This document shows, one piece after another, positions 4,353 to 38,236 of a DNA stretch of 64,000 nucleotides. Each line of letters starts with the position of its first letter. Positions within the stretch are counted from its first letter, which is position 1. The DNA lies in contig CAKTEH010000008.1 in NCBI GenBank assembly GCA_934546935.1, forward strand, positions 669 to 64,668. Direction: 5' to 3'. Under the pieces are notes generated by a model. It searched no databases. It saw only the letters and a list, made by a program, of their open reading frames with translations, and was not told where the DNA came from. The DNA comes from an uncultured Eubacteriales bacterium. GTDB lineage: Bacteria; Bacillota; Clostridia; Oscillospirales; QAMX01. The position numbers and the translations under genes are program-made.

Positions 4353-4416
4353 AAAAAAACCTCCACACATCGGGGCGTGAAGGGTTGAAAAAGGCGGCAA
4401 ACCATGCTGGCATGCC

Positions 4417-4548
4417 AAGCTTCTTCCATCCGGACTATAACCGTCGGCGCCGGACTCAAACCGGACTCAGCCGCACTGCGGCTCGCGGGCTCATGCGCAA
4501 AACGCGCCATAACCGCCGGTGGGGATTTGCGCCCCGCCCCGAAGCTAA
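4417..4548 (-). promoter_or_regulatory. FMN riboswitch (RFN element) controlling ribU
   Basis: Minus strand reads GCTTCGGGGCGGGGCGCAAATCCCCACCGGCGGTTATGG..GAGCCCGCGAGCC..GGTTTGAGTCCGGCGCCGACGGTTATAGTCCGGATGGAAGAAGC. The conserved RFN cores (GGGGCGGGG..AAATCCCCACCGGCGGT, AGCCCGCGAGC, GCCGACGGTTATAGTCCGGATGGAAGAAG) and the closing P1 GCTTC/GAAGC are all present. A GCC-TTTTT tract follows at about 4395-4410 and may belong to the expression platform. Confidence 0.9.
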
Positions 4549-4592
4549 TTAATTTCTGGTACCGGACGCACGTTGCACCGATACCGTATGTC

Positions 4593-30616: not shown

Positions 30617-31015
30617 GTGTGGCGGAAATTATATAATGCCGCAATTAAAGTTCAAAATGACAGAGCAATTTCCCCTTTTATAGATGCAGGCGGCGTCGCG
30701 GCGGCGATCCTTACAAAACAGGGGAATATTTATGTAGGCGTTTGTATCGATACGGCGTCTGGCTTGGGAATGTGCGCCGAAAGGAACGCAATTGCAAATA
30801 TGATTACAAACGGGGAAAGCCAGATTGATAAGGTTGTTGCTGTAATGCCAGATGGAAAACTTGGCTCCCCCTGCGGCGCTTGTCGCGAATATATGATGCA
30901 GCTGGATAAATGCAGCGGGGATATTGAGATTCTTCTCGGTCTTGAGACGGAAAAAACCGTTAAACTAAAAGAATTACTCCCCGATTGGTGGGGAAAGGAA
31001 AGATTTGACGAGTGA
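30617..31015 (+). CDS. Cytidine deaminase-fold zinc enzyme (Cdd / blasticidin-S-deaminase-like)
   Basis: GTG start after GGAGGGG. Zinc motifs CAERNA and SPCGACRE are present, with the C-terminal ELLPDWWG. The size (132 aa) matches homotetrameric CDA-type enzymes. Confidence 0.8.
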   Translation: MWRKLYNAAIKVQNDRAISPFIDAGGVAAAILTKQGNIYVGVCIDTASGLGMCAERNAIANMITNGESQIDKVVAVMPDGKLGSPCGACREYMMQLDKCSGDIEILLGLETEKTVKLKELLPDWWGKERFDE

Positions 31016-31136
31016 CTTGGGAAAATCCGGCTTATTGGGCTGCGCTTCCTGGAAACGTTCCCCCGCGTCAATTTCGCAAGGGCGGATTTCCGGCTTCAGC
31101 ATTGATCCGGAAGGGAAAGAGAGACTGTGCGGTGAA

Positions 31137-31165
31137 TTGACAAAATTCGTAGGCTGTGTTATAAT
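31137..31165 (+). promoter_or_regulatory. Near-consensus sigma-70 promoter with extended -10
   Basis: TTGACA (31137-31142), a 17-nt spacer, then TGtTATAAT (hexamer 31160-31165). It lies about 430 nt upstream of the first plausible speA start. Confidence 0.65.
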
Positions 31166-31171
31166 AAGATG

Positions 31172-31527
31172 ATTTTGAAAAGATTCCCGTTATTAGAGCC
31201 TTTTCAAAGCAATTGTTCTGGACCACTCCGCTAGGGAGTCAAGGCCATACGGACAGCCGGGTCCACTGCCGCCTGGCAGCCGATGCGCTGCCTTATTGAT
31301 TGAGTTAAAAGCTCAAATTTTATAAGTTGGTTCCTTTATAACCATGTGCGCCTGTGCGCAGACTTGTGAAACGGTCAATAAGAGTAGTAAAAGTATAATT
31401 GCTATATAGACTCTGATAACCCAACTCCTTTCTGAATTCTTTTTTGCTTATCTATATGTCCCGAAACCGCGCCGGTGTCCTCCGGCTTTGCGGTGGATAG
31501 GGGCGCATACATGGATTCTGAATGGAA
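31172..31527 (+). promoter_or_regulatory. Long structured 5' leader of the polyamine operon (unclassified cis-regulatory RNA candidate)
   Basis: There is no credible ORF here. Helices visible by eye are 31174-82/31200-08, 31219-24/31260-65 (enclosing ACTCC-GCTAG-GGAGT), alternative hairpins at 31266-31292, and nested CCGC-GCCGG...CCGGC-GCGG at 31467-31493. The leader ends in the terminator at 31528-31566. Confidence 0.4.
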
Positions 31528-31566
31528 AACGCAAGGTTTGCCGGCGCGCATGCCTTGCGTTTTTTT
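31528..31566 (+). terminator. Intrinsic terminator (attenuator) immediately upstream of speA
   Basis: 9-bp stem AACGCAAGG / CCTTGCGTT (31528-36 / 31553-61) with a GC-rich loop, followed by a run of seven T (31560-31566). It lies 30-45 nt before the candidate speA start codons. Confidence 0.75.
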
Positions 31567-31596
31567 GCTTTGGAAAGGAACCGGATTTGGACAGGA

Positions 31597-33072
31597 ATGA
31601 GGATGAAGAAGATGCAGACAAGACCAAACCGGCTAGACCAGCACCGCGCGCCAATCCACGAGGCGCTGGAACGGTTCCGCCAGATGCGTGTCGTCCCTTT
31701 TGATGTGCCGGGCCATAAGCGCGGCCGCGGTAACCCGGAGCTGACCGCATTTTTGGGCCAGCAGTGCGTTGGCGTGGACGTCAACAGTATGAAGCCGTTG
31801 GATAACCTGTGCCATCCGGTGTCGGTGATCCGTGAAGCGGAGGAACTTGCAGCGGAGGCTTTTGGCGCTGCGCACGCTTTTTTGATGGTTGGCGGTACGA
31901 CCAGCTCCGTACAGAGCATGGTGCTGACCGCCTGTAAGCGCGGGGATGAGATTATCCTGCCGCGCAATGTCCACCGCAGCGTTATCAACGCGCTGGTGCT
32001 GTGCGGCGCAATACCGGTGTATGTGAATCCAGAGGTCGACCAGCAGCTTGGGATTTCTCTGGGGATGCGGCGGGAAGCTGTGGAAAAAGCAATCCGCGAG
32101 CATCCGAATGCGGTTGCCGTGCTGGTTAATAACCCGACTTACTACGGCGTTTGCTCCGATCTGCGCGCGATTGTGCGCATGGCGCATGCGGCAGGGATGC
32201 TATGCCTTGCTGATGAAGCGCATGGGACGCATTTTTATTTCGGGGGCGGGCTACCTGTGTCCGCTATGGCCGCGGGTGCGGACATGGCTTCGGTTTCCAT
32301 GCATAAAAGCGGCGGAAGCCTGACACAGTCAAGCCTGCTGCTCGTCGGTCCGAATGTACATGCAGGCTATGTGCGTCAGATTATCAATCTGACGCAGACG
32401 ACTTCGGGAAGTTACCTTTTGATGTCCAGCCTGGATATCAGCCGGCGCAATCTTGCCCTGCGGGGCCGGCAGGTATTCCACCAGGTGGCTGATATGGCGG
32501 AATATGCCCGGGAAGAAATCAATGCAGTCGGCGGTTACTATGCATTTGGAAAGGAACTGGTCGACGGCAACGCGATCTTTGATTTTGATACTACGAAGCT
32601 GAGTATTCATACCCTTGATATCGGCCTTGCGGGGATTGAGGTATATGATATCCTGCGTGATGAGTATGATATCCAGATCGAGTTTGGCGATATTGGCAAT
32701 ATTCTGGCCTATCTGTCCATAGGGGACCGGCCGCAGGAAGTTGAACGGCTTGTCAGCGCCCTTGCGGAGATCCGGCGCCGCTATCACAAGGACAGCGCGG
32801 GCCTTTTGAACCAGGAGTATTTTGACCCAGAGGTTGTTACAAGCCCACAGGAAGCGTTTTATGCGCGGAAAATCAGCCTGCCAATTGAAGAAACGCAGGG
32901 GCGTGTATGCAGCGAATTTGTCATGTGCTATCCGCCTGGGATCCCGGTGCTTGCGCCGGGGGAGCGTATTACGCAGGAAATCCTGGATTATATTGAATAT
33001 GCGAAAAACAAAGGCTGCAGCATGACCGGCCCGGAGGATCCGGAAATCCGTGCGTTGAATGTCATTGCCTGA
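31597..33072 (+). CDS. speA: Arginine decarboxylase, Orn/Lys/Arg decarboxylase fold-I family (Bacillus SpeA type)
   Basis: VVPFDVPGHKRGRGNPEL...VGGTTSSVQSM...SMHKSGGSLTQSS, with the PLP-Lys context. Three in-frame ATGs exist at 31597, 31603 and 31612. ATG 31612 (MQTRPN...) has GAGGA 8 nt upstream and may be the real start. The track start at 31522 runs through the terminator and is rejected. Confidence 0.9.
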   Translation: MRMKKMQTRPNRLDQHRAPIHEALERFRQMRVVPFDVPGHKRGRGNPELTAFLGQQCVGVDVNSMKPLDNLCHPVSVIREAEELAAEAFGAAHAFLMVGGTTSSVQSMVLTACKRGDEIILPRNVHRSVINALVLCGAIPVYVNPEVDQQLGISLGMRREAVEKAIREHPNAVAVLVNNPTYYGVCSDLRAIVRMAHAAGMLCLADEAHGTHFYFGGGLPVSAMAAGADMASVSMHKSGGSLTQSSLLLVGPNVHAGYVRQIINLTQTTSGSYLLMSSLDISRRNLALRGRQVFHQVADMAEYAREEINAVGGYYAFGKELVDGNAIFDFDTTKLSIHTLDIGLAGIEVYDILRDEYDIQIEFGDIGNILAYLSIGDRPQEVERLVSALAEIRRRYHKDSAGLLNQEYFDPEVVTSPQEAFYARKISLPIEETQGRVCSEFVMCYPPGIPVLAPGERITQEILDYIEYAKNKGCSMTGPEDPEIRALNVIA

Positions 33073-33091
33073 AGGCAGGAAGGGAAAAAAT

Positions 33092-33946
33092 ATGGAGATG
33101 TGGTTCAGTGAATTTCACACCCCGGACGTCAAACACAGCATCCGTGTAAACCGGCAGCTGTATTCCGTACAAAGTCAGTACCAGCGCATTGATATTTTCG
33201 ATACTCCGGAGTTCGGCCGCGTTCTAACGCTCGACGGAAACGTTATGTTGACTGAGCGGGATGAATTCATATATGATGAAATGATTACCCATGTCCCGAT
33301 GGCGGTCCATCCGGGAATCCGGGATATTCTTGTCATTGGTGCCGGCGACGGCGGTGTTGTGCGCGAGCTGACGCGTTACGACCGTGTTGAGCGTGTCGAC
33401 CTGGTGGAGATGGACCCGCAGGTTGTGGAAGCCTGCCGTGCCTACTTGCCCGGCAATGCCTGCCGGCTTGACGACCGGCGTGTGCATATTTATTTTGAAA
33501 ACGCGCTAAAATTTATCCGGCGCTGTGAAGCGGCGTATGACTTGATTATCGTTGATTCTACAGACCCCTTTGGTCCTTCGGAAGGACTGTTTACCCGCGA
33601 ATTTTACGGCAACTGCTACAATGCCCTGCGTGAAGATGGAATTATGGTAAACCAACAGGGAAGCCCTTTCTATTCTGAAGATGCCAAGGCGATGCAGCGC
33701 AGCCATAAGCGTATTGTCAGTACTTTCCCAATTGCACGCGTTTATCAGGCGCATATCCCGACCTATGCGGCGGGGTACTGGCTGTTTGGTTTTTCGAGTA
33801 AAAAATACCACCCGACTGATGACCTCGACGCAGCGGCGTGGAATAACCTTAACCTGCGCACACGCTATTACACAACGCGGCTGCATGCCGGTGCGTTCTG
33901 TCTTCCTGCGTTTTTAGAAGAAATGCTGAGGGAAGTGGAGGGATAA
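33092..33946 (+). CDS. speE: Spermidine synthase / aminopropyltransferase
   Basis: Start set at ATG 33092 (MEMWFSEFHTPDVKHSIRV...). QRIDIFDTPEFGRVLTLDG...ILVIGAGDGGVVRE...IIVDSTDPFGP are the SpeE signatures. Confidence 0.92.
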   Translation: MEMWFSEFHTPDVKHSIRVNRQLYSVQSQYQRIDIFDTPEFGRVLTLDGNVMLTERDEFIYDEMITHVPMAVHPGIRDILVIGAGDGGVVRELTRYDRVERVDLVEMDPQVVEACRAYLPGNACRLDDRRVHIYFENALKFIRRCEAAYDLIIVDSTDPFGPSEGLFTREFYGNCYNALREDGIMVNQQGSPFYSEDAKAMQRSHKRIVSTFPIARVYQAHIPTYAAGYWLFGFSSKKYHPTDDLDAAAWNNLNLRTRYYTTRLHAGAFCLPAFLEEMLREVEG

Positions 33947-33948
33947 AA

Positions 33949-34821
33949 ATGCTGCCGAAGAATGTTGAAACATTTATTGGCTGCGAGGCTGCGTATGACG
34001 AAGCATGTGTTGTCCTATATGGCGCGCCCTTTGATTCGACGACGAGCTTCCGGCCTGGCGCGCGTTTCGGCCCCGCTGCCATGCGGCATGAAAGCTTCGG
34101 GCTGGAAACCTATAGTCCCTATCAGGATGCAGACCTGACGGATTTCGCGGTTTTTGACAGTGGGGACATGGAGTTGTGCTTTGGCAGCGCTGAACAGGCA
34201 TTGGCAGATATTGAAGCGCGGGCGCGGACAATCCTGTCTGATGGGAAACTCCCGCTGCTGCTTGGCGGCGAGCATCTTGTGACCTTGGGCGCGGTCCGTG
34301 CCGTGGCTGCGCGATATCCTGACCTGCATATCCTGCATTTCGATGCGCATGCGGATCTTCGCGACGACTACCTTGGCGCGAAGCTGAGCCATGCCTGCGT
34401 GCTGCGGCGCTGCTATGAACTGGTTGGGGACGGCCGTATTCATCAGTTCTGTATCCGCAGCGGCGAGCGGGAAGAATTCCGTTTCGCGCAGGCGCATACC
34501 CAGATGCATCGGTTTGATTTTGACGGCCTTGAGCAAACCATAGAGGCATTGTGCGCAGCCGGTGCGCCGGTTTATCTGACGATTGATCTCGACTGCCTGG
34601 ATCCGTCCTGTTTTTCCGGAACCGGTACGCCGGAGGCCGGCGGTACCAGCTTCTGCCAGCTTCTGAAAGCAATCCTGACAGCTGCGCGGGCCCATATTGT
34701 CGGGGCGGACCTGAACGAGCTTGCGCCCATGTTAGATGCAAGCGGCGCATCCACGGCGTTGGCATGCAAGGTGCTGCGCGAGCTGCTGCTGGCGCTTTGT
34801 CTGCAAAAGGCCGTGGTATAA
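33949..34821 (+). CDS. speB: Agmatinase (ureohydrolase family)
   Basis: GAPFDSTTSFRPGARFGP...LLLGGEHLVT...ILHFDAHADLRDDY...LTIDLDCLDP are the Mn-binding ureohydrolase motifs. It starts 3 nt after the speE stop. Confidence 0.92.
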   Translation: MLPKNVETFIGCEAAYDEACVVLYGAPFDSTTSFRPGARFGPAAMRHESFGLETYSPYQDADLTDFAVFDSGDMELCFGSAEQALADIEARARTILSDGKLPLLLGGEHLVTLGAVRAVAARYPDLHILHFDAHADLRDDYLGAKLSHACVLRRCYELVGDGRIHQFCIRSGEREEFRFAQAHTQMHRFDFDGLEQTIEALCAAGAPVYLTIDLDCLDPSCFSGTGTPEAGGTSFCQLLKAILTAARAHIVGADLNELAPMLDASGASTALACKVLRELLLALCLQKAVV

Positions 34822-34840
34822 CTGCGGAAAAAGGTGAATT

Positions 34841-35719
34841 ATGAATCCGAAGGCGCTTTTAACCTATGCCAAAACGCATGCCGATACCTTCACACAGGGC
34901 GGCATATCCTCAAATTCCATTCGGTTTTTTGAATATGGAGGAAAGCGCTATGTCCTGAAGCTTCCGCTGATGACGGGAGACCGGCTTTCTCCCTTTTGGC
35001 AGATGATGAAGAATATTCTCGGCTTTACATTTGAAAAACAGTCGGAGCGGCTTGAAGCGCTTTGCCGGCGGCTTGCGGAAAATCCGCATATTAAAACCGC
35101 GCCATTTCTTGCGGCGGATCGGGACGCGATGCTTTACGGCTTTATAGAAGGAACGGCGGGCCCGGATGATCGTTTCCCGGATGCGGGGGACAATGCGTTT
35201 CGACTTGGGCAGTATATCGGGTTTAACCATGCCGTTGCCCATGCGCGCTGCGGGATGCTTGGAAAAGAGGACGTAGAAGATTTTTTCTCCGCTGCGCTGC
35301 GCCATATGGAAGCGTGTGTGCGGTGTCATTGGACGGAGGATACGCCGCTTGATGCGGCAGTGCGCGATTTTTTTGCAAAGCTGAAAACCCAGCGCCTGGA
35401 AAGCAGCCGTTATTCGCTGATTATGGGGGATATGAGCGCCGATCAGTTCCTGTTTGACAAAGACGGGCGCATCGTGGCCTGCGTCGACCTGGACGCCTAT
35501 GTGATCGCGCCGGTTGAATGGGAGCTCTCGATGCTGAAGACGCAGGTTTCCGACTGGGAAAGCTTCCAAAAAGGCTATGCCTGCTATCAGAATATGCCGG
35601 ATTTCGCCGCGATGCAGGACTTTTTCTATTTTTTGATGGCATTGAATGCCTATAACAGCAAAAACGAACTGGAAAACGATTGGGCGCCGCTTTTTACGGC
35701 ACCGTTTTTGCATACCTAA
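34841..35719 (+). CDS. Divergent protein-kinase-like / aminoglycoside-phosphotransferase-fold protein, function unknown
   Basis: GGKRYVLKLP is a beta3-Lys-like VLK. SLIMGDMSADQFLFDKDGRIVACVDLDAYVIAPVEWELS is collinear with the APH/choline-kinase catalytic loop (HxDxxxxN) and the metal-binding D motif, but His is replaced by Met and Asn by Gln. AAAGGTGA SD is present. Confidence 0.6.
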   Translation: MNPKALLTYAKTHADTFTQGGISSNSIRFFEYGGKRYVLKLPLMTGDRLSPFWQMMKNILGFTFEKQSERLEALCRRLAENPHIKTAPFLAADRDAMLYGFIEGTAGPDDRFPDAGDNAFRLGQYIGFNHAVAHARCGMLGKEDVEDFFSAALRHMEACVRCHWTEDTPLDAAVRDFFAKLKTQRLESSRYSLIMGDMSADQFLFDKDGRIVACVDLDAYVIAPVEWELSMLKTQVSDWESFQKGYACYQNMPDFAAMQDFFYFLMALNAYNSKNELENDWAPLFTAPFLHT

Positions 35720-35762
35720 ACGTCCGCAAATTGTAAAATTGAAAAAAGGAAGGGAATCATTT

Positions 35763-37022
35763 ATGAGCAAAGTACTTGTCATCGGCTGCGGCGGCGTCGC
35801 GTCCGTCGCTATCCAGAAATGCTGTCAGGCAAGCGAAGTGTTTACCGAGCTGTGCATTGCCAGCCGCACTAAATCCAAATGCGATGCGCTGGCTGAAAAG
35901 CTGGCCCCGTTGACCAAGACGAAGATTACAACCGCGCAGGTTGATGCCGACGATGTCCAGCAGTTAATCGGCCTGATCCATGCCTATCAGCCGGAGCTTG
36001 TGATGAATATTGCCTTGCCGTATCAGGATCTGACGATTATGGATGCCTGTCTTGCCTGCGGCGTCAATTATATGGATACGGCCAACTATGAGCCGGAAAA
36101 TACCGATGATCCGGCGTGGCGTGAAATATATGAAAAACGCTGCCGGGAGGAGGGGTTCTCCGCCTATTTTGATTATTCCTGGCAGTGGGCATATAAGGAG
36201 AAGTTTGAAAAAGCGGGGCTGACTGCGTTGCTGGGATGCGGTTTTGATCCCGGCGTAACACAGGCTTACTGTGCTTATGCGCAGAAACACGAGTTTGACC
36301 GCATTGATACGATTGATATCCTCGACTGCAACGGGGGCGACCATGGCTATGCTTTTGCAACCAATTTCAACCCTGAAATCAACCTGCGCGAGGTTTCTGC
36401 GCCGGGCAGCTATTGGGAAGACGGCCATTGGGTTGAGATTCCTGCAATGAGTATCAAGCGGGAATATGATTTTGATGAAGTGGGGCATAAGGATATGTAT
36501 CTGCTGCATCATGAGGAAATAGAATCGCTTGCGAAAAATATCCCGGGCGTGCGCCGGATTCGCTTCTTCATGACCTTTGGACAGAGCTACCTTGACCATA
36601 TGCGTTGCCTGGAGGACGTCGGGATGCTGTCGACTACGCCGGTTGTGTACGAGGGACGTGAAATCGTGCCGATTCAGTTTTTAAAGGCGCTTTTGCCTGA
36701 CCCGGCGACCCTTGGGCCGCGTACAAAGGGCAAGACCAATATCGGCTGTATTTTTACAGGCGTCAAGGATGGAAAAGAAAAAACCTACTGCATTTATAAT
36801 ATATGCGATCATCAGGCCTGCTACCGGGAGGTTGGTTCCCAGGCGATCAGCTACACGACCGGCGTCCCGGCCATGTGTGGTGCATTGATGCTGCTGACTG
36901 GGAAATGGAAGGCGCCGGGCGTTTATACGGTAGAGGAGTTTGACCCGGATCCCTTCCTTGATGCGCTTGACCGCTATGGTTTGCCGCGCAGTGAAAACCA
37001 TGCGCCGGTACTGGTGGACTGA
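35763..37022 (+). CDS. Carboxy(nor)spermidine dehydrogenase/synthase (saccharopine dehydrogenase family)
   Basis: Start set at ATG 35763 (MSKVLVIGCGGVASVAIQKC, a Rossmann GxGxxA). YMDTANYEP...GFDPGVTQAY...NFNPEINLRE is typical of CASDH. The track start at 35646 overlaps the previous gene. Confidence 0.88.
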   Translation: MSKVLVIGCGGVASVAIQKCCQASEVFTELCIASRTKSKCDALAEKLAPLTKTKITTAQVDADDVQQLIGLIHAYQPELVMNIALPYQDLTIMDACLACGVNYMDTANYEPENTDDPAWREIYEKRCREEGFSAYFDYSWQWAYKEKFEKAGLTALLGCGFDPGVTQAYCAYAQKHEFDRIDTIDILDCNGGDHGYAFATNFNPEINLREVSAPGSYWEDGHWVEIPAMSIKREYDFDEVGHKDMYLLHHEEIESLAKNIPGVRRIRFFMTFGQSYLDHMRCLEDVGMLSTTPVVYEGREIVPIQFLKALLPDPATLGPRTKGKTNIGCIFTGVKDGKEKTYCIYNICDHQACYREVGSQAISYTTGVPAMCGALMLLTGKWKAPGVYTVEEFDPDPFLDALDRYGLPRSENHAPVLVD

Positions 37023-38236
37023 TGCAGGGTGTTGACCTGCGCCCGCCTTTTGCGGCGCTTGCCGGGGAAAATCCCAGCTCCCTGTTTTCCAAAGTGGAAT
37101 CGCCTGCATATGTGCTGGATGCGGATGCGCTTATGCGAAACGGGGAGGTTTTAGCCGGCGTCCAGGCACGCACCGGCTGCCGGATCCTGCTTGCGCAGAA
37201 AGCGTTTTCTAACTACGACCTTTACCCCTTCCTTTCGCCGTATCTGGCCGGAACGGAAGCCAGCGGCCTGTATGAGGCGCGCCTTGGCGCGCAGCAGATG
37301 CCGGGCGGCGAGGTGCATGTTTTTTGCGCGGCCTACCGCGAAGAGGAATTTGATGAACTTTTGCATTACGCTGGGCATATTGTGTTCAATTCTCCTGCGC
37401 AGCTTGCCCGGTTCGGTGCACGGGCAAAGGCGGCAGGCAAGAGCGTCGGCCTGCGTATCAACCCCGAATGCTCCACGCAGCAGGGACATGCCATATATGA
37501 TCCCTGTGCGCCAGGCAGCCGCCTTGGCACGACGCGCGCTCAATATGACGCGGCAATGACAACGCAGCTTTTTGCGCTGCTTGACGGGCTTCATTTTCAT
37601 ACGCTCTGCGAGCAGGATGCCGATGCGCTGGAAACTACGCTTGCAGCGGTGGAAGCCAAGTTCGGGGATATTCTTCCGGCAATGCGCTGGGTGAATTTCG
37701 GCGGCGGCCATCATATTACGCGCCCCGGCTATGACCTTGCCCGCTTAGAACGCTGTATTGCGGGAATAAAATCCCGTTTTGATGTTGAAGTCTATCTCGA
37801 ACCGGGGGAGGCCTGCGCCCTAAACGCCGGGTACCTGGTCACACGCGTGTTGGATATATTGCAGAATGGCGGCATACAGATTGCAGTTTTGGATATGAGC
37901 GCAGCTTGTCATACGCCCGATGTTCTTGAAATGCCCTACCGCCCGCCCTTGTATGGCGCGGGGGAGATGGGCGAAAAACCTTATGCTTACCGGCTCGCCG
38001 GTCCGACCTGCCTTGCGGGGGACGTGGTTGGGGACTACAGTTTTGACACGCCGCTGTCGGTAGGGGATATGCTTGTGTTTGGGGATATGGCGATCTATAC
38101 CAGCTGTAAAAACAATACCTTCAACGGCATGCCGCTGCCCGCGCTTTATATGCGCCATGGGGAGGATGTAAAGCTTCTGCGCCGTTTCGGATATGAAGAT
38201 TTCTATATGCGTCTGGGCAGCCGCCGGCATCCGTGA
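37022..38236 (+). CDS. nspC: Carboxy(nor)spermidine decarboxylase (alanine-racemase-fold PLP enzyme)
   Basis: SPAYVLDADALMRN...LLAQKAFSN...GTEASGLYEARLG...NFGGGHHITRPGYD...EPGEA are the NspC/CANSDC signatures. Its ATG overlaps the upstream TGA by 1 nt. The true start could be further downstream. Confidence 0.88.
   Translation: MQGVDLRPPFAALAGENPSSLFSKVESPAYVLDADALMRNGEVLAGVQARTGCRILLAQKAFSNYDLYPFLSPYLAGTEASGLYEARLGAQQMPGGEVHVFCAAYREEEFDELLHYAGHIVFNSPAQLARFGARAKAAGKSVGLRINPECSTQQGHAIYDPCAPGSRLGTTRAQYDAAMTTQLFALLDGLHFHTLCEQDADALETTLAAVEAKFGDILPAMRWVNFGGGHHITRPGYDLARLERCIAGIKSRFDVEVYLEPGEACALNAGYLVTRVLDILQNGGIQIAVLDMSAACHTPDVLEMPYRPPLYGAGEMGEKPYAYRLAGPTCLAGDVVGDYSFDTPLSVGDMLVFGDMAIYTSCKNNTFNGMPLPALYMRHGEDVKLLRRFGYEDFYMRLGSRRHP

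Follow-up and report, generated by a model that had tools for sequence, protein, structure and literature searches.

Introduction

Polyamines are made by nearly all cells and, to our knowledge, the control of their levels in Firmicutes is largely uncharted. In enterobacteria, the long leaders of polyamine genes exemplified by speFL and mdtU undergo premature termination in response to pathway metabolites, a process that needs a translated conserved small ORF as well as Rho.

The sole validated polyamine riboswitch is a rare variant of the SAM-I riboswitch that senses spermidine (Salvail et al., 2023; PMC10853860). [quoted passage not shown] The published model comprises 54 nt, and its structure was given as "a hairpin with a bulge", to which an invariant pseudoknot may be added; the motif is located in 5' UTRs, upstream of potA and of genes for arginine, ornithine or SAM decarboxylases, and a possible role in polyamine homeostasis was proposed (PMC5737381). 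Gut Clostridia and soil Bacilli frequently carry the motif, and the literature searched held no report of a larger structure or, since 2017, of a ligand.

Here, we analyzed the leader of a polyamine operon within a stretch of 64,000 nucleotides from an uncultured Eubacteriales bacterium, to which we refer as the window. Judged from its sequence, this leader belongs to the ldcC family, a known orphan, and is a candidate cis-regulator of polyamine genes. New are the true extent of the RNA, a fold that is backed by covariation, the apparent status of the Rfam motif as an optional branch, and an off-switch model with terminator and antiterminator. With an RNA of about 250 nt, a persistent 3' domain, and an internal strand that is wired to a terminator, the ligand question becomes directly testable.

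Promoter and coding content of the leader

The leader is preceded by a sigma-70 promoter at 31137-31165 (+), which consists of the -35 box TTGACA (31137-42), a 17-nt spacer, a TG at 31157-58, and the -10 box TATAAT (31160-65). In a promoter scan of the window, it scored 12/12 and had the upstream TG of an extended -10 element. An earlier note on this DNA had called it the best promoter in the window; the match is indeed perfect, but it is not unique, as a second promoter on the opposite strand (6369-6341 (-), TTGACA-17-TATAAT) also reaches 12/12 with a TG. Some 30 nt downstream of this second promoter follow a ribosome-binding site and then the start codon (ATG) of an ORF of 338 aa (6309-5293), an ordinary gene with a short leader.

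Transcription of the polyamine leader would start at about 31171-31173, and the alignment of relatives likewise has -10-like boxes a few nucleotides 5' of the first hairpin. The decarboxylase frame offers two in-frame ATGs with a plausible ribosome-binding site, at 31603 and 31612, about 430-440 nt from the -10 box, which agrees with the distance of about 430 nt given earlier. It had also been claimed that the interval holds no credible ORF, and the overlapping ORFs are in fact all short or antisense. No small ORF with a conserved frame was found in the ORF list together with the relatives' alignment of the leader, and there are stop codons within invariant blocks in all three forward frames. 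The stops in all forward frames and the lack of frame conservation indicate that conservation acts on the RNA. The whole leader folds better than shuffled sequences (z = -3.4). Its segment 31293-31460 has 33% GC as compared to 53% in the window; this AT-rich island is made up of the conserved 3' domain and the first part of the spacer and is not foreign DNA.

Assignment to the ldcC family

Positions 31220-31272 (+) match the Rfam family RF02440 (SpF59 sRNA / ldcC RNA) with 66.2 bits, far above the gathering score of 37.2. The match spans model positions 1-54 of 54 and has an E-value of 1e-9 for the whole window, so that the description of the leader as "unclassified" has to be given up. Both helices of the bulged hairpin are paired, namely P1 (31219-24/31260-65) and P1a (31225-29/31235-39), and they flank the invariant bulge CAAGGCCATACGGACAGCCG at 31240-59; the exact 23-mer AAGGCCATACGGACAGCCGGGTC of the family is found at 31241-31263. 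The position in a 5' UTR, between the promoter and an operon of an OKR_DC_1 decarboxylase, speE, and speB, is also that of the family. The leader thus shares with the published ldcC motif the bulged hairpin, the invariant AAGGCCAUACGGACAGCCGGGUC, and the 5' UTR site that the motif has in Firmicutes next to arginine, ornithine or SAM decarboxylase and potA genes. Among the matches listed, the closest relatives of both RNA and operon are from Clostridia such as Neglectibacter, Subdoligranulum, and Blautia.

With Rfam at gathering score across the whole window, the leader was matched by ldcC alone. The window also contains, at 4414-4550 (-), an FMN riboswitch of full length (RF00050, 100.1 bits). 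When the threshold was relaxed to E<=10 for the region 31000-31700, ldcC was joined by a single chance fragment of a lncRNA, in agreement with the earlier view that the leader fits no validated riboswitch class and no T-box. A T-box leader was rejected, as RF00230 did not match at E<=10 and the conserved blocks do not contain the T-box sequence. A SAM-I-type spermidine riboswitch was rejected as well, as no SAM-family match was found on 31000-31700, even at E<=10. The expectation that an RNA that senses a polyamine would be a new class has been overtaken by the validation of the SAM-I-derived spermidine riboswitch in 2023 (PMC10853860).

Extent of the conserved RNA

The 23-nt ldcC core occurs as an exact match in at least 120 species genomes from Bacilli, Clostridia, and Negativicutes. 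When the leader was compared to the 120 species listed by blastn, identities of 72-89% extended over about 31195-31417, far beyond the Rfam model, and this conservation, which is accompanied by covariation, is found upstream of orthologous operons. The leader alignment is composed of long invariant blocks between hairpins whose sequences differ but still pair. There are 55 invariant and many near-invariant positions, and much of this conservation is outside helices; as the sequence sets were picked by exact matches of 20-23 nt, the apparent conservation is inflated. From these comparisons, the RNA appears to be about 250 nt long (31174-31420), with the ldcC motif as one of its branches.

The 3' domain at 31292-31416 (+) is outside any Rfam model and comprises helices P3 to P7, followed by an A-rich segment and GCTATATAGACTCT. 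We described it by a covariance model of 130 positions and 33 pairs (R1), for which 67 other species were used and the window was excluded. R1 has a single match in the window, which covers 31292-31416 and reaches 136.7 bits (E = 5.6e-26). The 3' anchor GCTATATAGACTC was found 136-318 nt past the start of the core, mostly at 170-180 nt, in 103 of the 121 cases listed. Among the 18 cases without the anchor, 12 had full-length R1 matches, two had partial matches that were cut by the end of the locus, two had the core at the locus edge and were not assessable, and the last two seem to be genuinely different, with a weak match in one (L026) and none in the other (L106). At least 115 of the 121 listed loci with the ldcC core therefore also carry the 3' domain.

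Helices and covariation

The 5'-terminal hairpin H0 (31174-82/31200-08, TTTGAAAAG/CTTTTCAAA) carries the 5' strand of the outer closing helix P10 in its loop. All seven of its seven evaluated pairs change on both sides, for example to UUGGAAAG/CUUUCCAA in Bacilli, and H0 is also present in the fold that was constrained to the antiterminator. P10 (31189-98/31411-20, GTTATTAGAG/CTCTGATAAC) has 10/10 standard pairs, and the 5' and 3' flanks of a locus pair better with each other than with swapped flanks in 44 of 66 loci (-7.8 vs -6.0 kcal/mol, p = 1.4e-4). The long-range helix P9 (31208-15/31396-403, AGCAATTG/TAATTGCT) has 8/8 pairs, and both the 3' domain and the ldcC branch lie inside it. The helix is paired in 91% of the cells of the alignment and shows compensatory changes, with AU 40, UA 17, and GC 2 in column 91/342. 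As P9 and P10 tie the 5' to the 3' end, the ldcC branch and the 3' domain belong to one RNA.

Within the region enclosed by P9, the ldcC helices P1 (TGGACC/GGTCCA) and P1a (ACTCC/GGAGT) covary, and they are followed by the hairpin P2 (31275-80/31287-92, GGCAGC-CGATGC-GCTGCC), in which 6/6 pairs change on both sides. The 3' domain begins with the long-range helix P3 (31293-301/31373-81), which is nearly invariant, as is the second long-range helix P5 (31318-28/31361-71). Three hairpins are associated with them: P4 (31302-05/31311-14), P6 (31329-32/31340-43), and P7 (31347-51/31356-60), the last of which forms in 68 of 73 sequences by 67 distinct sequences. Compensatory changes are clear for H0, P1/P1a, P2, P4, and P9. 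The rare changes in P3 and P5 are from U-G to U-A and agree with pairing; there is too little variation in these helices for covariation to prove them.

All 79 listed helix pairs and the terminator pairs are standard pairs in the window. In an alignment that was not fitted to the structure, the 63 modelled pairs are 92.2% paired, as compared to 35-48% after the strands were slid by 1-3 columns, and none of 500 shuffles equalled the observed covariation. RNAalifold on a MAFFT alignment gave a partial fold that missed P5 and P9, which were spotted by eye and then counted. It also predicted an alternative helix P8, in which AGAGT at 31381-85 pairs with an invariant GACTCT; as this pairing is invariant, it is blind to covariation. 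P8 and P10 compete for the CTC of GACTCT, for which the sequence variants do not discriminate, and only the P10 flanks have covariation support. As H0 crosses P10 and P8 conflicts with it, the fold assigned to each state is a proposed model. A possible contact of the P6 loop with the A-rich segment was also considered, but inspection by eye gave no covariation for it.

Every helix named in the earlier note is complementary as it was described there. The note treated its helices as separate elements, whereas we read them as parts of the one RNA. Of its two mutually exclusive hairpins at 31266-31292, the competing CUGCC/GGCAG hairpin is possible in 64 of 73 relatives but shows no sign of importance. 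A scan also flagged P2 with the tail UUAUUGAUUG as an early terminator; this candidate was rejected, as the supposed tail belongs to P3 as its invariant 5' strand, and the RNA stays conserved for another 125 nt. In Bacillus and Paenibacillus (L023, L038), the H0 5' strand and loop GGAAAGCUAAUAUUCAA are by eye complementary to the 3' flank UUGAAUAUU..AGCUUCC, a pairing that would lengthen the closing stem and compete with H0.

Copies without the ldcC branch

We scanned metagenomes with a word from the 3' domain, which gave 109 assessable sites among the matches listed. The ldcC core, with up to 4 mismatches allowed, was found about 139 nt upstream in 95 of these 109 listed 3' domains and was absent in 14. 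Eight of the 14 sites without the core are clean: P9 is joined by its 5' strand directly to P2 in them, and the whole ldcC branch is gone (L201, L204, L129, L185, L206, L221, L161, and L133). These eight copies keep H0, P9, P2, and the 3' domain, and RF02440 gave no Rfam match in them. They are still located upstream of speA or speD polyamine operons, which implies that the part outside the Rfam model is the constant part of the family. The ldcC branch thus appears to be dispensable. The Rfam model describes the family incompletely, and copies without the branch escape genome annotation.

Three further sites with the same sequence (L130, L135, L173) have a variant 5' half, in which UAAGGCGAUUGGAGCC precedes P3 and the P4 region is enlarged; their 3' domain is normal, and they lie upstream of speD-speA. 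The contig of one clean copy also carries a TwoAYGGAY RNA (RF01731, 105 bits; L161, 3327-3491 (-)).

Terminator and proposed antiterminator

The RNA is followed by a spacer (31421-31525 (+)) and a predicted intrinsic terminator (31526-31566 (+)). Alignments to relatives stop at about 31417, and the spacer is not conserved in sequence between species; its length also varies, with terminators that end at +54 to +176. The GC-rich nested hairpin at 31467-31493, which the earlier note had included in the leader structure, is complementary but lies in this unconserved spacer; as its sequence is not kept in relatives, it was rejected as a conserved element. By eye, its CUUUGCG could also pair with the 5' strand of the terminator.

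The terminator stem AAAACGCAAGG/CCTTGCGTTTT (31526-36/31553-63) has 11/11 pairs and seven U, with about -22 kcal/mol, so that our scan bore out the statement that the leader ends in a strong intrinsic terminator. A terminator-like hairpin is found within 330 nt 3' of the RNA in 98 of 100 related loci, with a median end at +118.

The 5' strand of the terminator is complementary to a strand inside the RNA. This putative antiterminator strand (31358-31368 (+), GCAGACTTGTG) consists of the 3' strands of P7 and P5 and complements 31530-31541; the predicted duplex of GCAGACUUGUG (31358-68) with CGCAAG-G-UUUGC (31530-41) has 11 standard pairs and -12.1 kcal/mol. Across the 98 loci, the 3' strands of P7 and P5 are the best partner of the terminator 5' strand in 58, as compared to 15 with shuffled and 25 with reversed sequences, and a locus' own terminator is a better partner than those of other loci in 66. 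In the other 40 of the 98 loci, the terminator complementarity is not at the P7/P5 site. The complementarity is partly generic due to a GCAAG that terminators share, and the strand from a foreign locus still lands at the site in 45 of 98 cases. The separation of about 170 nt between the antiterminator strand and the terminator is unusually long.

The terminator stems of about 100 related loci are alike across distant taxa; the shared stem is ACGCAAG...CUUGCGU in Clostridia, whereas Bacilli have AAGCAAGUG...CACUUGCUU. Terminators do not usually resemble each other in this way, and the likeness is accounted for by the pairing that they have to maintain with the invariant ACUUGUG of P5. When the window sequence was folded under constraints, the state with aptamer and terminator had -131.8 kcal/mol and the antiterminator state had -128.6 kcal/mol, and this calculated gap of about 3 kcal/mol may be small enough for a ligand to decide between the two. 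Together, the helices, the terminators, and the complementarity to P7/P5 provide an aptamer fold that is exclusive with a platform structure, as is expected of a riboswitch.

Downstream genes

The operon downstream of the terminator (31603-38236 (+)) was assigned by Pfam and ORFs. It begins with an Orn/Lys/Arg decarboxylase (start at 31603 or 31612, to 33072), followed by spermidine synthase (33059-33946), agmatinase (33949-34821), an APH-family protein (34841-35719), a saccharopine-dehydrogenase-like protein that resembles carboxyspermidine dehydrogenase (CASDH; 35646-37022), and a protein that resembles carboxyspermidine decarboxylase (CANSDC; 37022-38236). The APH-family gene splits the agmatinase gene from the CASDH-like gene, whereas speB is directly followed by CASDH at other loci, and it looks like an insertion that is specific to this genome. 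The listed start of the CASDH-like gene at 35646 overlaps the APH-family gene by 74 nt and is probably too early. The decarboxylase protein (31612-33072) is 67-91% identical across Clostridia, Bacilli, and Negativicutes (L003, L006, L010, L014, L039). For hosts this far apart, such a level is high, and it suggests either horizontal movement of operon and leader or a very strong constraint on them.

In the 120 loci listed, the genes 3' of the RNA are speA-speE-speB, with or without CASDH-CANSDC, speD-speA-..., CASDH-CANSDC alone, or potA. By established pathway knowledge, what SpeD, CASDH/CANSDC, and PotABCD share is a part in making or importing spermidine. An off switch that acts on both synthesis and import points to the end product as the signal, in the simplest case spermidine or norspermidine.

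Proposed mechanism and alternative explanations

We consider it probable that the leader is a cis-acting transcription attenuator that works as an off switch on the RNA of about 250 nt, with spermidine or a close polyamine that is directly bound as the likeliest signal. In the fully folded RNA, P10 and P9 would close the structure, and P3, P5, and P7 would form inside. This would sequester 31358-68, so that the terminator at 31526-66 could form and transcription would halt ahead of the decarboxylase gene. Without stabilization of the RNA, 31358-68 would instead pair with the 5' half of the terminator at 31530-41, and this antiterminator would permit read-through into the operon. As the aptamer fold excludes the antiterminator and the antiterminator excludes the terminator, stabilization of the fold would cause termination, which would make the system an off switch. 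The stabilizing signal would most likely be the end product of the pathway, i.e., spermidine or a close polyamine bound by the RNA itself. The proposal of the earlier note that premature termination controls the polyamine operon is very probable in view of the conserved, structured, non-coding leader and its terminator, whereas the effector is one that we infer.

A more far-reaching version, which we put forward tentatively and with somewhat less than even confidence, is that the RNA represents a widespread class of large riboswitches for spermidine or a close polyamine that is unrelated to the SAM-I-derived one, with the ldcC branch as an accessory and the sensing core in the 3' domain and the junctions. 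If so, constructs of the 54-nt ldcC motif would be without most of the aptamer, and such truncation could partly explain the absence of an assigned ldcC ligand.

The same RNA and terminator logic could also respond to a protein or another macromolecule that acts on the invariant single-stranded blocks in place of a small molecule, much like PyrR and TRAP, which act by binding to leader RNA. The abundance of invariant and near-invariant positions outside helices would suit such an effector, as would the ldcC bulge, which is invariant yet missing from some copies, as would be the case for a docking module. In the 120 loci listed, however, the RNA is accompanied by genes for enzymes and transporters only and not by a regulator gene, and the occurrence in Bacilli, Clostridia, and Negativicutes would call for an equally universal factor, which renders a macromolecular effector unlikely. 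Another candidate is a general folding sensor for polycations or Mg2+, in which AU-rich and G-U-rich long-range helices would fold only at high total polycation, without a specific pocket. The low GC content of the 3' domain (33% in the 53% GC window), the AU-rich helices P3, P5, and P9 with their several G-U pairs, and the closeness in energy of the two constrained states are in line with this. The extreme invariance of the junctions is nevertheless more typical of a specific pocket, and the association with spermidine-specific genes alone also argues for specificity, so that we regard an unspecific ion sensor as quite improbable.

The name SpF59 sRNA and the Rfam type of RF02440 ("Gene; sRNA") raise the question of whether the main product could be a trans-acting small RNA whose transcription is simply ended by the terminator; promoter and terminator would indeed give a stable transcript of about 395 nt. 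This is very improbable: among the matches listed, the RNA is always on the same strand as, and directly 5' of, polyamine genes, with no second promoter evident, and complementarity between terminator and aptamer is a requirement of a cis switch. A terminated leader would in any case mimic an sRNA in RNA-seq. As to attenuation by a ribosome-stalling leader peptide, as with speFL or mdtU in enterobacteria, short ORFs do exist in the leader, for example one of 21 codons that starts with the ATG at 31345. The start codon of this ORF, however, lies in the variable P7 hairpin, its frame is shifted and disrupted by indels between species, it has no Shine-Dalgarno sequence, and the invariant blocks hold the stops mentioned above in all forward frames. 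As the frame is not conserved, a speFL-like leader peptide was rejected, and we attribute hardly any likelihood to it. Direct sensing of spermidine or a close polyamine by the RNA is the reading that we prefer.

Comparison with known systems

Relative to the published ldcC motif of 54 nt, the RNA of about 250 nt in the window adds P9 and P10, a 3' domain of 125 nt, and the platform of terminator and antiterminator, and the published branch is missing from about a tenth of the sampled copies of the larger RNA. The architecture can be likened to the lysine L-box and the SAM-I S-box, in which a multi-helix junction aptamer with a long-range closing stem shares a strand with a mutually exclusive antiterminator, and in which synthesis and uptake genes of one metabolite are controlled. 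In contrast to these, the shared strand of the window RNA is deep in the aptamer (P7/P5) and not in the closing helix, it is about 170 nt upstream of the terminator, and the RNA is without a reported ligand in the literature searched. With speFL and mdtU, the window leader would have in common that transcription ends early within a long leader ahead of polyamine genes, in response to pathway metabolites; it differs in that it has no conserved ORF and in that its terminator is intrinsic.

The spermidine riboswitch shares with the window RNA the kinds of genes (ldcC/speA-type decarboxylase, speE, and speB) and the occurrence in Firmicutes, and it is an off switch that operates via an intrinsic terminator (PMC10853860), as we propose for the window RNA. 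The folds of the two are unrelated, and SAM-I (RF00162) did not match the window RNA at E<=10. They also differ in abundance, as the spermidine riboswitch has 13 representatives (PMC10853860), whereas the window RNA was found at least 120 times in genomes and at least 120 times in metagenomes.
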